Shown in pieces: positions 12,258-18,870 of a stretch of DNA of 64,000 bases. The translations under genes were made by a program, and so were the position numbers. The stretch lies in contig CAYUQB010000001.1 of NCBI GenBank assembly GCA_964446735.1, forward strand, positions 111,270 through 175,269, written 5' to 3'. Source of the stretch: an uncultured Candidatus Saccharibacteria bacterium. GTDB taxonomy: Bacteria > Patescibacteriota > Minisyncoccia > Phycocordibacterales > Phycocordibacteraceae. Numbering within the stretch: the stretch's first letter is position 1; every line of letters begins with the position of its first letter. The notes beneath the pieces are model-generated. The model did not search any database. It saw only the letters and a program-made list of their open reading frames with translations, and was not told where the DNA came from.

Positions 12258-12503
12258 TCAAAGGAGGACGGTCGCTTGATTGCTCGACACCTCGGCTATC
12301 CCTTTCTCGATAGAAAAAGTCTCCTTCTTTCCCTCCGCGGTTTCGACAACTGCCTCACCCGCTTTTAGTGGGGTCACGAAGGCCTCGTGTCCCGCAAGCA
12401 CCGTAAAAACACCGCCTTCACCAGGAAGAGTTACTGCGAGTGCTTCTCCGTCAAAGAGGTTCTCGCCGACCTTCGCAATAGTGAGATGGAATGTTCGAGC
12501 CAT
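12258..12503 (-). CDS. atpC: F1 ATP synthase epsilon subunit (short form)
   Basis: 81 aa beta-sandwich-like sequence directly downstream of atpD, with a 1-nt overlap. Confidence 0.75.
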   Translation of the reverse strand: MARTFHLTIAKVGENLFDGEALAVTLPGEGGVFTVLAGHEAFVTPLKAGEAVVETAEGKKETFSIEKGIAEVSSNQATVLL

Positions 12504-13879
12504 TATGCAGTGACCTGATCGATAGTGCCCTTCATGTAGAAGGCGTTTTCTGGCTTATCATCGTGCTTACCTTCCACGATTTCCTTGAACCCGCGTACGG
12601 TATCCTCGCGCGAGACGTATGCACCCTTGGTACCCGTAAAGACTTCCGCAACGTTAAAGGGCTGCGAGAGGAAGCGCTGAATCTTACGCGCACGGTACAC
12701 AACCGTCTTATCCTCATCCGAGAGCTCCTCGATACCGAGAATCGCAATGATGTCCTGGAGGTCGGTGTAGCGCTGGAGCACCTTCTTCACTGCGTTTGCG
12801 ACTTCATAGTGCTCCTCACCGACGACGTCAGGCGTAAGCGCCGTTGATGTGGAAAGCAACGGGTCAATAGCAGGATAAATACCAAGCGCAGCGAGTTGGC
12901 GCGAAAGCACCACCGTACCATCAAGGTGGGCGAAGGTGGTTGCCGGTGCCGGGTCGGTAAGGTCGTCCGCCGGAACGTACACTGCCTGCACGGAGGTGAT
13001 AGATCCCTTCTTAGTAGAAGTGATGCGCTCTTGAAGCTTACCCATTTCTTCAGCAAGGGTCGGCTGATAGCCCACGGCGGATGGAACACGTCCGAGAAGT
13101 GAAGACACTTCAGATCCCGCTTGAATGAAGCGGAACACGTTGTCCATGAAGAAGAGCACGTCTTTACCACCTTCGTCGCGGAAGTATTCCGCCTGGGTAA
13201 GACCAGTGAGTGCGATGCGGGCACGAGCACCAGGAACTTCGTTCATCTGACCGAACACCAGTGCGGTCTTATCCAGCACGCCCGATTCTTCCATTTCGTG
13301 ATAGAGGTCGTTACCCTCGCGCACGCGCTCACCCACGCCAGCAAACACGGAGTAGCCACCGTGATTACTTGCCACGTTATGGATGAGCTCCTGGATGATA
13401 ACCGTCTTGCCCACACCCGCGCCTCCAAAGAGACCCACCTTTCCGCCCTTAATAAAGGGAACCATGAGATCGATCGCCTTGATACCAGTCTCAAAGACTT
13501 CCGCCTTGGTCGTCTGCTCCTCGAAGGAAGGTGGCTGGCGATGGATAGGCAGGTGCGGATTATCCTTTCCGATCTTCTCCTTTCCATCGAGTGTCTCACC
13601 GAGCACATTGAAGAGGCGGCCCAAGGCAGCAGTACCCACCGGAACCGAAATGGGTGCGCCCGTGGCAATAGCCTGCTCACCACGTGAGAGACCGGCAGTT
13701 TCCGTCATGGATATGGTGCGCACGCGGTCGAGGCCCAAGTGTGCCGCGACTTCAAGCGTGATGCGTCCATGCACCTCATTCCCGTCGATGACGAGCGCTT
13801 CCAAGATGGCGGGTCGGTCCTTTTCAAAATGCACATCCACGACCGGCCCGATAACTTCTACGATGGTTCCTTTGTTCAT
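12503..13879 (-). CDS. atpD: F1 ATP synthase beta subunit
   Basis: Walker [16 protein letters not shown]-like region, 458 aa. Confidence 0.95.
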
Positions 13880-13904
13880 AAATCTAGTATTACCACTGCC
13901 TTCC

Positions 13905-14813
13905 TTACGTTGCTAATGCTTCCCGACCGCCCACGATCTCTGACACTTCACGCGTGATATTCGCTTGGCGAATCTTGTTCGCCTTACGGGTGAGGTCATG
14001 CGCGACTTCTTTCGACTTATCCGATGCGTTTTTCATTGCCACCATGCGAGCCGAGTGCTCAGAGGCCTTCGACTCAAGGAGCATGTGATACAGCGAGACG
14101 GCCACCAACCGCGGCACGAGAAACCCGAGCACTTCGTCACCCGACGGCTCCACTTCGTAGGAGGCGGGTGGTGCGAGCTCGACGTCCTCCGACCACTTGC
14201 CTTTTGCCGGTCGGATGCCTTCGACTACCTTTGCAAGTGATTCGATGGAAAGTGGGAGGAGGGTGTGTGCAGTCGCGATCTGTTCGAAGGTCGAACGGAA
14301 ATCGCTGTATACCGCAACCACTTGATCAAAATCTCCTGCAAGGAATGCATCGGAGACTTCCCGCGCGATATCCTCCATGGCACCAAGGTCCACGTCGTCG
14401 CCCTTGTTGATGTAAGACGCGCGAATCTCGTATCCACGATTGGTGAAATACTCCTGCCCCTTACGACCATATGCATAGACCACCACGTCAGAAACGCTAC
14501 GATCGCCGATCGCTTCTACCGCCTTCTTCAGCACGCCTGAGTTAAGACCACCGGCTAGTCCTTTATCACTCGTGAGAACGAGGAGTCCGAGCTTGCCTCC
14601 CGCGCGTACGTTTGCCAGAGGATGGCGCTTCACGCTTTCAGTGCCAGAAAGGCGGGTAAGGACCGCAAGAGCCGCACGAGCGTACGCACGGCCTTCGAAT
14701 GCGGCATTCTGAGTCTTACGCATCTTTACGGCAGAGACAGCCTCCATCGCACGCGTGACTTTATTCATGCGCTTGGTGGCCTGGATCTTCAGTTTGATGT
14801 CTTTGAGTGCCAT
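13905..14813 (-). CDS. atpG: F1 ATP synthase gamma subunit
   Basis: N-terminal [14 protein letters not shown]... and C-terminal coiled-coil typical of gamma. Confidence 0.9.
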
Positions 14814-14815
14814 AG

Positions 14816-15340
14816 CTATGGATCAATGTGAATGAGTGCCATACGAAGTGCCTCCATCGTGTAGGTCTTACGATTTACTCGCCCCTTCGTAACAATGCTC
14901 ACCACGCCTTCTGCCTTTCCAATCTCAAGACTTTCAGTCATACCGGATGCATGTGCTGCTCCATTCAGGTCCATGCCCTCATCCACCACTTTGCGCATTA
15001 CTTCTGGATCAGGAAACTCCCAGGCTGAGGTTAGACCGAGATGAAATTCCGCTCCGTCATAGATGGCACATGCGGTGAGTTCCATATACCCACTTTTGGT
15101 ATGGGGCACGGGCATAATTCCTGACTCAAGTCCGATTGAATACTCACAGTCGGCATATGCTGCTCGTGCGCGGTTCATTGCTCCCGTGATGGATTCATCG
15201 AGTGATTTCGGCTGCTCTGAAACACCGGACGGTACTTCGACGCCAACCACTTCCGCATCTTTCAAATGCGAATAATCCTGAAGCATGTCTCGCACTGCTT
15301 CTATCTTTACTGGGTTCTTTGAGCCGACCGCGATCTTCAT
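14816..15340 (-). CDS. yjjX: inosine/xanthosine triphosphatase YjjX-like (non-canonical NTP pyrophosphatase) inside the atp operon
   Basis: MKIAVGSKNPVKI..., VPSGVSEQP and ...NRA... motifs parallel E. coli YjjX. Confidence 0.7.
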   Translation of the reverse strand: MKIAVGSKNPVKIEAVRDMLQDYSHLKDAEVVGVEVPSGVSEQPKSLDESITGAMNRARAAYADCEYSIGLESGIMPVPHTKSGYMELTACAIYDGAEFHLGLTSAWEFPDPEVMRKVVDEGMDLNGAAHASGMTESLEIGKAEGVVSIVTKGRVNRKTYTMEALRMALIHIDP

Positions 15341-15342
15341 GG

Positions 15343-17280: not shown

Positions 17281-17284
17281 GCGG

Positions 17285-17728
17285 TTATTTCTCTCGAACC
17301 ACTTTCTCTGCGGCAAGCACCGCAAGGCGGGCGATCTCCTTTTCACTCTCACGAAGCGTACGTGCTGCATCTTCCTTGGCACGTGCTTCTGCGTCCTTTT
17401 CGATTGATGCTGCGCGTGCTTCTGCATCGCGTACGATGCGCGTGCGCTCGCTCGTAGCGGTTTCGCGTGCGGTACCCACAATGGTTTCCGCTTCGGTCTC
17501 TGCCGTATGGAGTACCTCTGCTGCCTCATGATCAGCGGACGCAAGCTTCTCTTCAGCGAGCTTCGCATCTTCAACACCTTTGGCGACCACACGACGCCGC
17601 TCATCAAGTGTTTTCATCACCGGCTTATACAGCAGGTACGTAAGTGCCACGAACAAGATGCCGAAGTTAACCGCCTGCGCGAGCAGGAGCTTCCAGTCGA
17701 TGCCGAATGCTGCGAAGAGTGATTCCAT
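17285..17728 (-). CDS. atpF: Fo ATP synthase subunit b
   Basis: N-terminal TM helix followed by a long Ala/Glu/Lys-rich coiled-coil. Confidence 0.75.
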   Translation of the reverse strand: MESLFAAFGIDWKLLLAQAVNFGILFVALTYLLYKPVMKTLDERRRVVAKGVEDAKLAEEKLASADHEAAEVLHTAETEAETIVGTARETATSERTRIVRDAEARAASIEKDAEARAKEDAARTLRESEKEIARLAVLAAEKVVREK

Positions 17729-17747
17729 ATGGCTCGACTACGCGCGA

Positions 17748-17978
17748 TTATCCGACGAACTTAATGATGAAGGCGACCACGAGCGCGAGAATACCAAGCG
17801 CTTCGGTGAACACGATTGCAAGAATCATGTTCGAGACGATCTTGCCGGACGCTTCTGGGTTGCGGCCAATAGCCTCCATGGCGCCGCCGCCAATCAGACC
17901 AATGCCGATGCCTGGGCCGATAACACCGAGACCCGCTGCAAGCGCCATGCCGATCAGTTTTGCTGCTTCTACATCCAT
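17748..17978 (-). CDS. atpE: Fo ATP synthase subunit c
   Basis: 76 aa hairpin with GxGxGxG packing motif and conserved Glu in TM2 (...[10 protein letters not shown]...). Confidence 0.85.
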
Positions 17979-18042
17979 ACCAATGGGTTAATTCAATAAA
18001 TTCGGTTCCATCCCGGAGCCGCATGCAGACACTAGCGAGACG

Positions 18043-18870
18043 CTAATGTTCGGCGTGCGGTTCCGCGATCGCAAGCTTAATGAAGAACAGGGTGAGCATC
18101 GAGAACACCACTGCTTGAATAAAGCCAACGAACACCTCAAATGCCATGAGTGGCACCGGCAAGAGGTACGGCAAGAAGAACGCCGCGACCAAGATCATGA
18201 CTTCGCCAGCAAAGATGTTTCCGAAGAGACGGAAGGAGAACGAGATGAGCCGTCCCAGATTCGATACGAGCTCGATGATGCCGACGGCGAAATTGACCGG
18301 TGAACTAAAGTTAACAAATTTACCGCCGTACTTCAAAAGTCCGAGGGTAAGGACGCCAGTGAGCTCAATGGTGAGGAATGAGATGATGGCGAGTGCAAGC
18401 GTCATATTAAGGTCTGCTGCAGGAGCACGTAGGAGGGGACTGAACCCTTCATGCGTGTTGATTCCTATGGACCCAACGCCCGGCAGGAACGCGAGTTCAT
18501 TGGCAACGAATACAAATAGGAAAATGGTTGCAATAAGAGGGAAGAACCGACGTGCCAATTCCCTGCTTTCAAGCGTTTCTTCCATGTAGTTCAAAACTGC
18601 TTCGAATGCCCATTCGACTCCCGCCTGGAACTTACCCGGAATGAGAGCGAGCTTTCGAGAGAAGAGGACGGCAAAAATAATAAGGATCGCAACAACGATC
18701 CAGGCCATCAGGAGTGAGTTGGTGATCGGAAAACCGAGGACGTGGCCGAGGGTTTCTGCCTTGAGCACGACATGGATGGCACTCGCGTGCTCAGCAGTAG
18801 TCGCTGCAGCTTCAGTTGCGGTAGCGACCGCAGTCGTCGTAGCACCCACAAACTCTATGTGTGGCTCCAT
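18043..18870 (-). CDS. atpB: Fo ATP synthase subunit a
   Basis: 275 aa polytopic protein with the conserved Arg in the penultimate helix (...LSFSFRLFGNIFAGE...). Confidence 0.85.
   Translation of the reverse strand: MEPHIEFVGATTTAVATATEAAATTAEHASAIHVVLKAETLGHVLGFPITNSLLMAWIVVAILIIFAVLFSRKLALIPGKFQAGVEWAFEAVLNYMEETLESRELARRFFPLIATIFLFVFVANELAFLPGVGSIGINTHEGFSPLLRAPAADLNMTLALAIISFLTIELTGVLTLGLLKYGGKFVNFSSPVNFAVGIIELVSNLGRLISFSFRLFGNIFAGEVMILVAAFFLPYLLPVPLMAFEVFVGFIQAVVFSMLTLFFIKLAIAEPHAEH

Follow-up and report, generated by a model that had tools for sequence, protein, structure and literature searches.

A gene for an inosine/xanthosine triphosphatase (ITPase) of the YjjX/NCPP type, as predicted from its sequence, lies inside the F1Fo ATP synthase operon of a Parcubacteria (Patescibacteria/CPR) bacterium, between atpA and atpG. 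The operon is found on the minus strand of the window, that is, the whole stretch of 64,000 nucleotides that was analysed. The reading that we favour, and hold to be somewhat probable, is that a soluble ITPase is co-transcribed within the atp operon and that its co-expression with F1 has been selected.

An additional cistron between atpA and atpG

All eight F1Fo subunits (a, c, b, delta, alpha, gamma, beta and epsilon) are encoded in one cluster on one strand, and this is the region of a single F1Fo ATP synthase operon. The first gene is atpB (18043–18870, minus strand as for all the following; Fo subunit a, 275 aa; PF00119, E 6.4e-41), followed by atpE (17748–17978; Fo subunit c, 76 aa; PF00137, E 6.4e-17), atpF (17285–17728; Fo subunit b, 147 aa; PF00430, E 7.3e-18; TIGR01144 model positions 1–129 of 147), atpH (16915–17280; short delta, 121 aa; PF00213, 22.8 bits, cut-off 22.3) and atpA (15343–16890; F1 alpha, 515 aa; TIGR00962, 714.6 bits, cut-off 484). 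After the ITPase gene (14816–15340; 174 aa) there are atpG (13905–14813; F1 gamma, 302 aa; PF00231, E 8.1e-79; TIGR01146, 237 bits, cut-off 194), atpD (12503–13879; F1 beta, 458 aa; TIGR01039, 777 bits, cut-off 463) and atpC (12258–12503; epsilon, 81 aa; PF02823, E 1.7e-17, residues 5–80), whose start shares 1 nt with the stop of atpD. The minus-strand order proposed in an earlier note, atpB-E-F-H-A-(yjjX-like)-G-D-C, was borne out gene by gene by these profile matches, and the contiguous atpA–atpG junction of the canonical type is absent in the window, where the 525-nt ITPase gene intervenes.

By direct reading of the sequence, the upstream junction is TAA-cc-ATG, with 2 nt (15341–15342) between the atpA stop and the ITPase start, and the downstream junction is TAG-ct-ATG, with 2 nt (14814–14815) between the ITPase stop and the atpG start; gaps of 2–3 nt had been claimed, and their tightness stands, the exact value being 2 nt on each side. 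Such a spacer leaves no room for a promoter or a terminator. An independent promoter and terminator had been posed in the earlier note as the sign of a gene isolated from its neighbours, and a scan of the junctions found no promoter-like or terminator-like site adjoining the ITPase gene, the totals of such sites being at or under the shuffle expectation. From the spacing we infer that the ITPase is co-transcribed and translationally coupled within the atp operon. The ITPase would be a cistron without signals of its own, transcribed as part of the operon and translated most likely by termination-reinitiation coupling to atpA (TAAccATG), and atpG would be coupled likewise to the ITPase (TAGctATG).

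Concerning the identity of the insert, the YjjX-like assignment of the earlier note found support in two families above their curated cut-offs, PF01931 (134.6 bits, cut-off 25; E 3.7e-39), aligned over model positions 1–160 of 162, and the NCBIfam equivalog TIGR00258 (125.8 bits, cut-off 117.1); the narrower equivalog NF003039 was not reached (151 vs 199). Relatives in the PDB are VC0702 (E 1e-11) and YjjX (E 3.7e-8), and the alignment to VC0702 keeps the motifs S-x-N-P-x-K, QP...GA-x-NR and G-L-E-x-G. Moreover, 30 residues are invariant in 32 ITPase homologs, including G6, N9, K12, P44, G53, R57, G70, E72 and G74. By these criteria the predicted product is that of a genuine, intact YjjX/NCPP-type inosine/xanthosine triphosphatase gene.

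A short delta subunit and a reduced stator

The delta subunit of about 121 aa starting at MEKVYAQAI, which the earlier note had also proposed, has its ATG 4 nt past the atpF stop and is real, since all 93 of its homologs are short (93–125 aa); the short form is lineage-wide, with 404 representative clusters. A 230-aa version of the same ORF (16915–17607, TTG start) was rejected as an artefact: it runs into atpF in another frame, as had been recognised, sharing 323 nt with it, and its N-terminal 109 residues are an Arg/Lys-rich alternative-frame sequence.

The window delta is aligned only to model positions 55–169 of PF00213, with a score barely at the gathering threshold. In its AF2 model (pLDDT 90.1) three helices (residues 2–14, 19–33 and 36–56) are followed by an alpha/beta C-terminal domain, and the six-helix N-terminal bundle (~105 residues) of delta/OSCP is absent. 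The top 17 Foldseek matches of this model are all OSCP/delta chains, while hhalign places residues 21–112 on E. coli delta 71–168, and a delta profile searched against the PDB aligns residues 15–112 to positions 65–169 of 7p2y_d (E 2e-8). According to these profile and structure comparisons, delta has undergone not a simple N-terminal truncation but an internal loss of ~50 residues of the N-terminal bundle; helices 5–6 and the C-terminal domain are kept, and helix 1 is probably retained. Of the YAxAL motif of helix 1, a helix that forms part of the alpha-binding groove, Y5 and A6 do not vary in the family and A8 hardly varies; the N-terminal helix aligns to helix 1 in three delta/OSCP chains of solved structure, with non-significant scores (-3.0, 2.8 and 2.5 bits).

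The short delta co-varies with a 14-residue insertion in the alpha crown, with an 81-aa epsilon and with a shorter b. The crown-barrel insertion (16690–16731; approximately residues 54–67, TFDRTLEAALKDAD) appears as a BLASTP gap against E. coli alpha, and the crown segment measures 38–39 aa in 44/44 short-delta-type loci vs 25–35 aa in 19 canonical-type loci (25 in the E. coli reference). Subunit b, 147 aa long in the window, has 163–180 aa in the sampled canonical-type loci. Epsilon possesses the beta-sandwich and ends at residue 81, lacking the C-terminal helical hairpin (TIGR01216 is aligned only to model positions 2–77 of 130), and it is likewise short in relatives (76–86 aa). Sister operons (loci L086–L088 and L090–L091) share the short delta and the flanking genes but have no ITPase, from which it follows that the insertion is independent of the short delta. 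With its 121 aa, this delta represents a reduced stator head common to the lineage and unrelated to the ITPase insertion.

House-cleaning genes in the F1 half of the operon

The comparison of synteny in relatives, as suggested in the earlier note, found the ITPase in the same slot and with the same tight spacing in 12/80 species-representative genomes, plus loci L004 and L005. In these relatives the gaps are mostly 1–8 nt (mostly 2–8 nt between atpA and the ITPase, and 1–6 nt between the ITPase and atpG), with identities of 53–65% for the ITPase and 62–85% for atpA, and the identical order and tight spacing in many independent assemblies indicate that the arrangement is not due to chance. Ten species with the insertion and six without it are interleaved in one atpA+atpG clade, with flanking synteny common to both, and at least 6–8 close relatives have no ITPase in the operon, a pattern that fits one old insertion followed by repeated loss in the clade. 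Among 80 atpG-anchored metagenome loci, none has PF01931 within the operon; by both counts the arrangement is dispensable, which speaks against a selected co-expression.

In related clades, which have acquired them independently, other house-cleaning genes are found in the two F1 slots, atpA|atpG and atpG|atpD: PF01931 and NUDIX between atpG and atpD (L019), NUDIX-Ham1-NUDIX (L098), Ham1-NUDIX (L103), Ham1 (L123), and an HD nucleotidase in atpA|atpG together with a NUDIX gene in atpG|atpD (L099). L098 and L019 are sister taxa that carry different ITPase families, Ham1 and PF01931, in the same slot; of four further Ham1 homologs (55–76% identity), three are in atpG|atpD. House-cleaning enzymes make up 8 of ~23 inserted ORFs, whereas none of these families matches more than 2 of the 150 flank ORFs; this enrichment (Fisher p 2e-7 to 1e-5; event-based binomial, 7/23 inserts at 3% background, p 3.5e-6) is affected by the shared ancestry of the loci. 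It has also to be seen against the frequency of NUDIX genes in this genome, of which the 64 kb contain two confirmed by Pfam and a third with a weak match. The window insertion is one case of a wider pattern of nucleotide house-cleaning genes within Parcubacteria atp operons, and this pattern makes it more plausible that the co-transcription is meaningful.

The presence of Ham1/RdgB ITPases, NUDIX proteins and an HD nucleotidase in the same two slots suggests that in Parcubacteria the co-expression of nucleotide-pool sanitation with ATP synthase has been selected. The ITPase would be an ordinary soluble house-cleaning enzyme clearing ITP and XTP from the purine NTP pool, not an ATP synthase subunit, and its position would tie its expression to that of F1. 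The chemical rationale that we prefer is speculative: F1 would be poor at telling purine nucleotides apart, these bacteria would live on salvaged nucleotides, and non-canonical purine NTPs would then arise, or matter, in proportion to ATP synthase activity. Enzymes of the YjjX type convert NTP to NDP and Pi, and F1Fo could re-phosphorylate the resulting diphosphate, which weakens the simple form of this rationale; RdgB/Ham1/ITPA enzymes, unlike the YjjX type, convert NTP to NMP and PPi. The base promiscuity of F1 (GTP, ITP) has been stated (PMC5797166). Furthermore, yjjX mutations arose in 4/4 E. coli lineages that had evolved on the electron transport chain of highest proton efficiency, and STRING connects YjjX with ATP biosynthesis (PMC9237125). 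A bolder proposal, which we consider rather improbable, is that in Parcubacteria a nucleotide-proofreading module (ITPase of the YjjX or Ham1 type, NUDIX, HD nucleotidase) has repeatedly entered the F1 cluster because the remodelled synthase, or the salvaged pool on which it acts, makes, or is poisoned by, non-canonical purine nucleotides; if so, pool sanitation would assist ATP synthase functionally, perhaps even in physical association with it, and would be no unrelated passenger. The recurrent inserts hint that these bacteria, with their tiny genomes, tie nucleotide-pool cleaning to ATP synthase.

The selected co-expression of the ITPase with F1 has to be weighed against neutral hitchhiking, a possible but clearly less probable explanation in which the ITPase, functionally unrelated to ATP synthase, is one of the small promoterless genes that settle in tolerant constitutive operons. 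Its premise is that streamlined genomes have few promoters and that atpA|atpG and atpG|atpD are permissive sites; the F1 slots may simply tolerate insertions, as they also carry toxin-antitoxin pairs, ASCH, 23S_rRNA_IVP, ORF6N and non-homologous small ORFs. The patchy presence of the ITPase among close relatives is in line with hitchhiking, and so is its GC3 (0.477), below that of atpA, atpG and atpD (0.61–0.63), which indicates a codon usage unlike that of the highly expressed F1 genes. The ITPase is also located beside or near secA in ~34/80 other Parcubacteria species, often with NUDIX directly downstream (in L003 it overlaps the secA stop by 11 nt), and what counts for this gene may be that it is carried by some constitutive housekeeping operon, whether or not this is the atp operon. 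However, the identifiable non-selfish cargo is strongly skewed to a single functional class, PF01931, Ham1, NUDIX and HD nucleotidase, in at least 5–7 events, against the rarity of each family among the flank ORFs; different ITPase families share one slot in a sister pair, and the arrangement has been kept, with spacers of 1–8 nt, down to ITPase identities of 53–65%.

Two further explanations are far less likely than either of these. That the gene is expressed from a separate promoter within the 3′ end of atpA, and belongs to the operon in a physical but not in a transcriptional sense, is very improbable: zero promoter-like matches were found on the minus strand at 15343–15600 in a scan covering the sigma-70-type consensus only, CPR promoters being poorly known, and no terminator-like site after atpA or after the ITPase. 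The differing GC3 may mirror a differing expression level, but atpG would then need read-through too, and the tight spacers on either side are conserved across species. Equally hard to credit is that the PF01931 protein has turned into a physical accessory of the reduced ATP synthase, or into a factor that regulates or assembles it, and makes up, for instance, for the lost C-terminal domain of epsilon or the shrunken delta. The place of the gene between alpha and gamma, the coupling-type spacers and the visible reduction of the complex in delta, epsilon and b (121, 81 and 147 aa) would suit such a role; against it, operons without the ITPase have identical short delta and epsilon, the protein has lost none of the signature residues of its family, the secA-linked copies in other Parcubacteria are its close orthologs, and the non-homologous Ham1 and NUDIX proteins in equivalent slots are more in keeping with a common chemistry than with a common surface for binding.

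Comparison with known systems

The E. coli K-12 operon atpIBEFHAGDC (L169) has the eight structural genes in an order identical to that of the window, and the alpha subunits of the two show 51% identity. In contrast, atpI is missing from the window operon, delta has 121 vs 177 aa, epsilon 81 vs 139 aa and b 147 vs 156 aa (the last two E. coli values from annotated atpC and atpF coordinates), and no PF01931-type gene is present between atpA and atpG in E. coli, which agrees with the earlier description of the arrangement as non-canonical. N-ATPase or "alternate F1Fo" operons share F-type subunits and an unusual operon content with the window, but this assignment was rejected: the TIGR033xx models all stay far below cut-off (alpha 580 vs 750, beta 594 vs 752, gamma 81 vs 282) and the standard equivalog models for alpha, beta, gamma and a are all above theirs, so the enzyme is a standard F-type.

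As in known delta/OSCP proteins (PF00213; 7p2y_d, 6oqr_W and bovine OSCP 6yy0_S), to whose C-terminal domain and last two N-terminal-domain helices the window delta aligns, the gene lies between atpF and atpA; the ~50 residues matching E. coli delta ~23–70 are missing, with three N-terminal helices vs six. The window ITPase shares family and full-length domain with E. coli YjjX and V. cholerae VC0702 (PF01931, UPF0244; non-canonical purine NTP phosphatase), its similarity in sequence to the solved 1zno/1zwy and 1u5w/1u14 being detectable but only moderate, and it is set apart from them as an internal atp-operon cistron with 2-nt spacers. RdgB/Ham1/ITPA proteins (PF01725), named non-canonical purine NTP pyrophosphatases by the sources, belong to another Pfam family, and Parcubacteria atp operons carry them in their F1 half (L098, L103, L123, L170, L171 and L172); they occupy atpG|atpD, not atpA|atpG as in the window, whose operon has none.

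The triphosphatase gene within the F1 genes

The interval 12258-18870 holds nine consecutive genes on the minus strand which, by Pfam and NCBIfam assignment, are atpB, atpE, atpF, atpH, atpA, a PF01931 gene, atpG, atpD and atpC, the order that an earlier note on this DNA had described. The inserted gene (15340-14816, minus strand, 174 aa) matches PF01931 (NTPase_I-T / DUF84) across almost the full model with an E-value of 3.7e-39 and also passes TIGR00258, the curated equivalog for inosine/xanthosine triphosphatase (125.8 bits against a cut-off of 117.1), which bears out the proposed identity as an ITPase. 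The nearest solved structures are VC0702 of V. cholerae (E 1e-11) and then YjjX (E 3.7e-8). The start at 15340 is backed by G6, N9 and K12, invariant among ITPase homologs. The NCBI call for this protein (P0001; 156 aa, 100% identity, 90% coverage) appears to begin too late, at an internal Met, with loss of the conserved N-terminal GSKNPVK motif. An N-ATPase identity for the operon was rejected; an assembly artefact was ruled out, since over 15 independent assemblies show the arrangement, and a fusion of atpA with the ITPase was ruled out by the differing frames and an in-frame stop.

The junction between atpA and the ITPase reads TAA-cc-ATG and that between the ITPase and atpG reads TAG-ct-ATG, so that the tight gaps of 2-3 nt claimed previously are in fact 2 nt on either side. 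In a consensus scan, neither junction showed a site resembling a promoter or a terminator, and the totals of such sites for the region do not exceed the shuffled-sequence expectation. The ITPase would thus be read as co-transcribed with the atp operon and is probably coupled translationally to atpA, as atpG would be to the ITPase. Overall, the earlier description proved right in each detail and its interpretation is supported, with the refinements reported here.

Upstream, 692 nt with a GC content of ~0.62 (18871-19562) separate tRNA-Ala(ggc) from atpB; this segment gave no Pfam or Rfam match and is conserved in relatives only in its last ~75 nt. A terminator-like hairpin with a T-run (18894-18881) ends ~10 nt ahead of the atpB ATG. 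Directly downstream of atpC lies a gene for an NYN-domain protein, a predicted RNase (11574-12197, minus strand), whose score of 24.2 bits is exactly the Pfam cut-off, and the operon is further followed by a Flavodoxin_2/FMN_red gene (10693-11268) and YchF (9451-10557), both on the minus strand. Among 150 flank ORFs of related loci, Flavodoxin_2/FMN_red was found 14 times and YchF 8 times, with YceG upstream; together these three genes form a conserved neighbourhood of the atp operon (L004, L086-L091, L172 and other related loci).

Recurrence of the insertion and other cargo

Homologs of the ITPase come nearly all from Patescibacteria/CPR MAGs, for example Pacebacteria, Liptonbacteria, Lloydbacteria and Kaiserbacteria. 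A profile scan restricted to one genome per species yielded 80 loci: the ITPase sits between atpA and atpG in 12 and between atpG and atpD in one (L019), and it adjoins or is near secA in ~34, overlapping the secA stop by 11 nt in L003. The insertion between atpA and atpG is also present in a separate Pacebacteria MAG (L004/L005). Spacers in the ITPase-bearing operons are mostly 2-8 nt from atpA to the ITPase and 1-6 nt from the ITPase to atpG, and identity to the window is 53-65% for the ITPase and 62-85% for atpA. The gene is absent from L086-L088, operons found via the short delta subunit, and from the closest atpG-anchored metagenome loci (L089-L093); those with sequenced flanks (L086-L088, L090, L091) show the same neighbours as the window, YceG upstream and Flavodoxin_2 and YchF downstream.

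The comparison of synteny with related genomes has two sides: the ITPase recurs in the same slot, yet sister species without it are interleaved, and in a neighbor-joining tree of atpA+atpG the 10 species with and the 6 without the insertion are mixed as sister taxa in one clade. The simplest history suggested by this distance tree is a single insertion followed by several losses. The insertion would then be ancient; it is dispensable and has no connection with the short delta. The neighbor-joining tree of the ITPase itself (174 aa), in which the window, L051 and L061 lie outside the main embedded cluster, is too poorly resolved to separate single from multiple origins, and the atpA+atpG tree was used instead. 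A decayed ITPase in the 404-nt gap between atpA and atpG of L101, sister to the ITPase-bearing L084, was rejected; the gap holds an intact 132-aa ORF with neither a Pfam match nor similarity to any insert. In L084 (4486-7058) the order atpA-ITPase-atpG-NUDIX is followed by an opposite-strand gene with no atpD after it, and its F1 genes appear to be split.

In the atpG-anchored sample no PF01931 gene was found; many unexplained gaps were present at the atpA/atpG and atpG/atpD junctions, and their same-strand ORFs were scanned with Pfam. Between atpG and atpD were found NUDIX, Ham1 (PF01725) and NUDIX in L098, Ham1 and NUDIX together with an MNT/HepT toxin-antitoxin pair (2197-2876) in L103, and Ham1 in L123, while the ITPase of L019 is there accompanied by NUDIX. 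Both slots are occupied in L099 (a YfbR-like HD 5'-deoxynucleotidase after atpA, NUDIX after atpG) and in L006 (PF01931 and ASCH, respectively). The NUDIX genes adjoining atpD are mutual orthologs (39-55% identity), as are the embedded Ham1 genes (49-69%). Since the tree places L098 beside L019 as its sister taxon and the two carry Ham1 and PF01931, respectively, in the same slot, an in-place swap of one ITPase family for another is indicated. An independent replicate came from a search for homologs of embedded Ham1, in which 3 of 4 inspectable matches, from Kaiserbacteria MAGs and 55-76% identical, lay between atpG and atpD, one of the three accompanied by NUDIX. Outside atp operons, a same-strand NUDIX gene very often directly follows PF01931, with gaps of 6-72 nt at no fewer than seven loci (at least 7), and ASCH sometimes does (L022); PF01931 and NUDIX, sometimes with ASCH, thus seem to act as a small recurring module. 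Examples of the pair linked to secA are L003 (6001-6540), L020, L029, L034, L037, L039, L079 and others.

The same two junctions seem to be generally permissive. Genes of selfish or mobile type, namely the MNT/HepT pair, a PemK toxin, 23S_rRNA_IVP proteins and an ORF6N protein, occur there in L103, L132 (5499-5885, 7019-7378), L144 (6956-7318) and L164 (1072-1674). In many Parcubacteria operons, small ORFs of 90-136 aa and of no known family immediately follow atpG or atpA, as in L049 (5715-6071, 118 aa), L105 (5627-5998, 123 aa), L114 (90 aa), L170 (268-588), L171 (4655-4996) and L172 (4248-4571), the last three being 106-113 aa. That they form one family, and hence a possible new subunit, was rejected because they share no mutual BLASTP similarity; no homolog of them was found in the window.

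The short delta subunit

The atpH ATG lies at 17280, 4 nt past the atpF stop, and the product has the 121 aa proposed earlier, in keeping with the 93-125 aa of all 93 word-indexed homologs; the 230-aa ORF is indeed an upstream extension in another frame across atpF. At E <= 1e-10 the short-delta profile retrieved 404 clusters from 1.84 billion representatives; among these, the top 150 are nearly all 118-134 aa. In the profile alignment, residues 15-112 of the short delta correspond to 65-169 of the solved delta 7p2y_d (E 2e-8), and hhalign places residues 21-112 on 71-168 of the E. coli delta. The AF2 model (pLDDT 90.1) consists of three helices followed by an alpha/beta C-terminal domain, and its best Foldseek matches are all OSCP/delta chains. 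The N-terminal Y-A-x-A motif is invariant and aligns, with non-significant scores, to helix 1 of delta/OSCP; the short delta is therefore read as a putative combination of helix 1, helices 5-6 and the C-terminal domain from which helices 2-4 have been deleted. In L093, a close relative without the ITPase, the delta (P0260) is called at 158 aa and aligns to the short-delta profile as two separate segments, so that an intermediate, or a form that has expanded again, may be represented here.

If the groove that binds the N-terminus of alpha is formed by helices 1 and 5, as in the E. coli delta, the minimal delta would keep the essential alpha contact. Alpha itself carries a 14-residue insertion in its crown barrel compared with E. 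coli (16690-16731, minus strand; atpA residues ~54-67), and the crown segment measures 38-39 residues in 44 of 44 loci of the short-delta type and 25-35 in 19 of 19 of the canonical type. Present throughout the former group and absent from the latter, the insertion may have co-evolved with the reduced delta. Moreover, the window epsilon is 81 aa long (beta-sandwich only) and b 147 aa, with the same values in relatives. Short delta, crown insertion, short epsilon and short b are all lineage-wide traits across the compared loci and are confounded with phylogeny.

Proposed co-expression with F1 and its significance

We infer that co-expression of the ITPase with F1 has been selected. The reason is speculative: CPR bacteria rely on salvaged nucleotides and F1 accepts GTP and ITP (PMC5797166), so that non-canonical purine NTPs might rise with ATP-synthase activity. 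In an E. coli evolution study, all four lineages whose respiratory chain was the most proton-efficient had yjjX mutations, and a STRING association of YjjX with ATP biosynthesis was noted (PMC9237125); these data may hint at a connection between the ITPase and ATP synthase and are a lead rather than proof. Alternatively, the module may need only any constitutive host operon, with no specific tie to ATP synthase, as the secA-linked copies in other species suggest; the GC3 of the ITPase (0.477), lower than that of atpA, atpG and atpD (0.61-0.63), likewise counts against a specific link.

Against this alternative stand the recurrence across species and the class-specific enrichment of house-cleaning genes (PF01931, Ham1, NUDIX and HD) among the inserts. 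The background consisted of 150 ORFs called in the flanks of atp-anchored CPR-type loci and all scanned with Pfam. None of the four families is among the 25 most frequent flank families, the lowest of which match 2 ORFs, and each therefore matches at most 2 of 150; tblastn of the flanks found one NUDIX, in L086. Of the ~23 ORFs inserted within the operons, 8 fall into these families, which gives a Fisher p of 2e-7 (1e-5 if the background is set pessimistically), in slots that also accept selfish or unknown cargo. With evolutionary events, estimated from a rough tree, in place of genes, the count is ~7 of 23 against a background of 3% (p 3.5e-6). As a caution on the enrichment, NUDIX genes are common in the window genome, where two Pfam-confirmed members lie 1.4 kb apart (53379-53792 and 55203-55646, minus strand) and a third match, near 23.6 kb, is weak. 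The member at 53379-53792 shares 40% identity with the atpD-linked NUDIX of L019, from a sister clade, and in the window genome that gene thus lies outside the operon.

Few bacterial gene clusters are as well conserved as ATP-synthase operons, and for this reason stable foreign cistrons amid the F1 genes are unusual. If selection favours the expression of ITPase, NUDIX or Ham1 together with F1, contamination of the purine NTP pool would be a specific vulnerability of CPR bacteria, which are ultra-small and depend on salvage, and a connection of energy conversion with the quality control of nucleotides would be directly testable. The reduced stator head, with its three-helix delta, 14-residue crown insertion, epsilon without C-terminal domain and shorter b, represents a natural minimal design that could reveal which delta-alpha contacts are truly needed for holding F1. 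There is also a lesson for annotation, as the public ITPase call of 156 aa starts late and ORF callers may stretch delta to 230 aa. In a literature search, whose negative outcome is no proof of novelty, neither the short delta nor CPR atp operons with ITPase, NUDIX or Ham1 genes were found described. Every component is a member of a known family, and the novelty lies in the arrangement, its recurrence and the reduced stator head.
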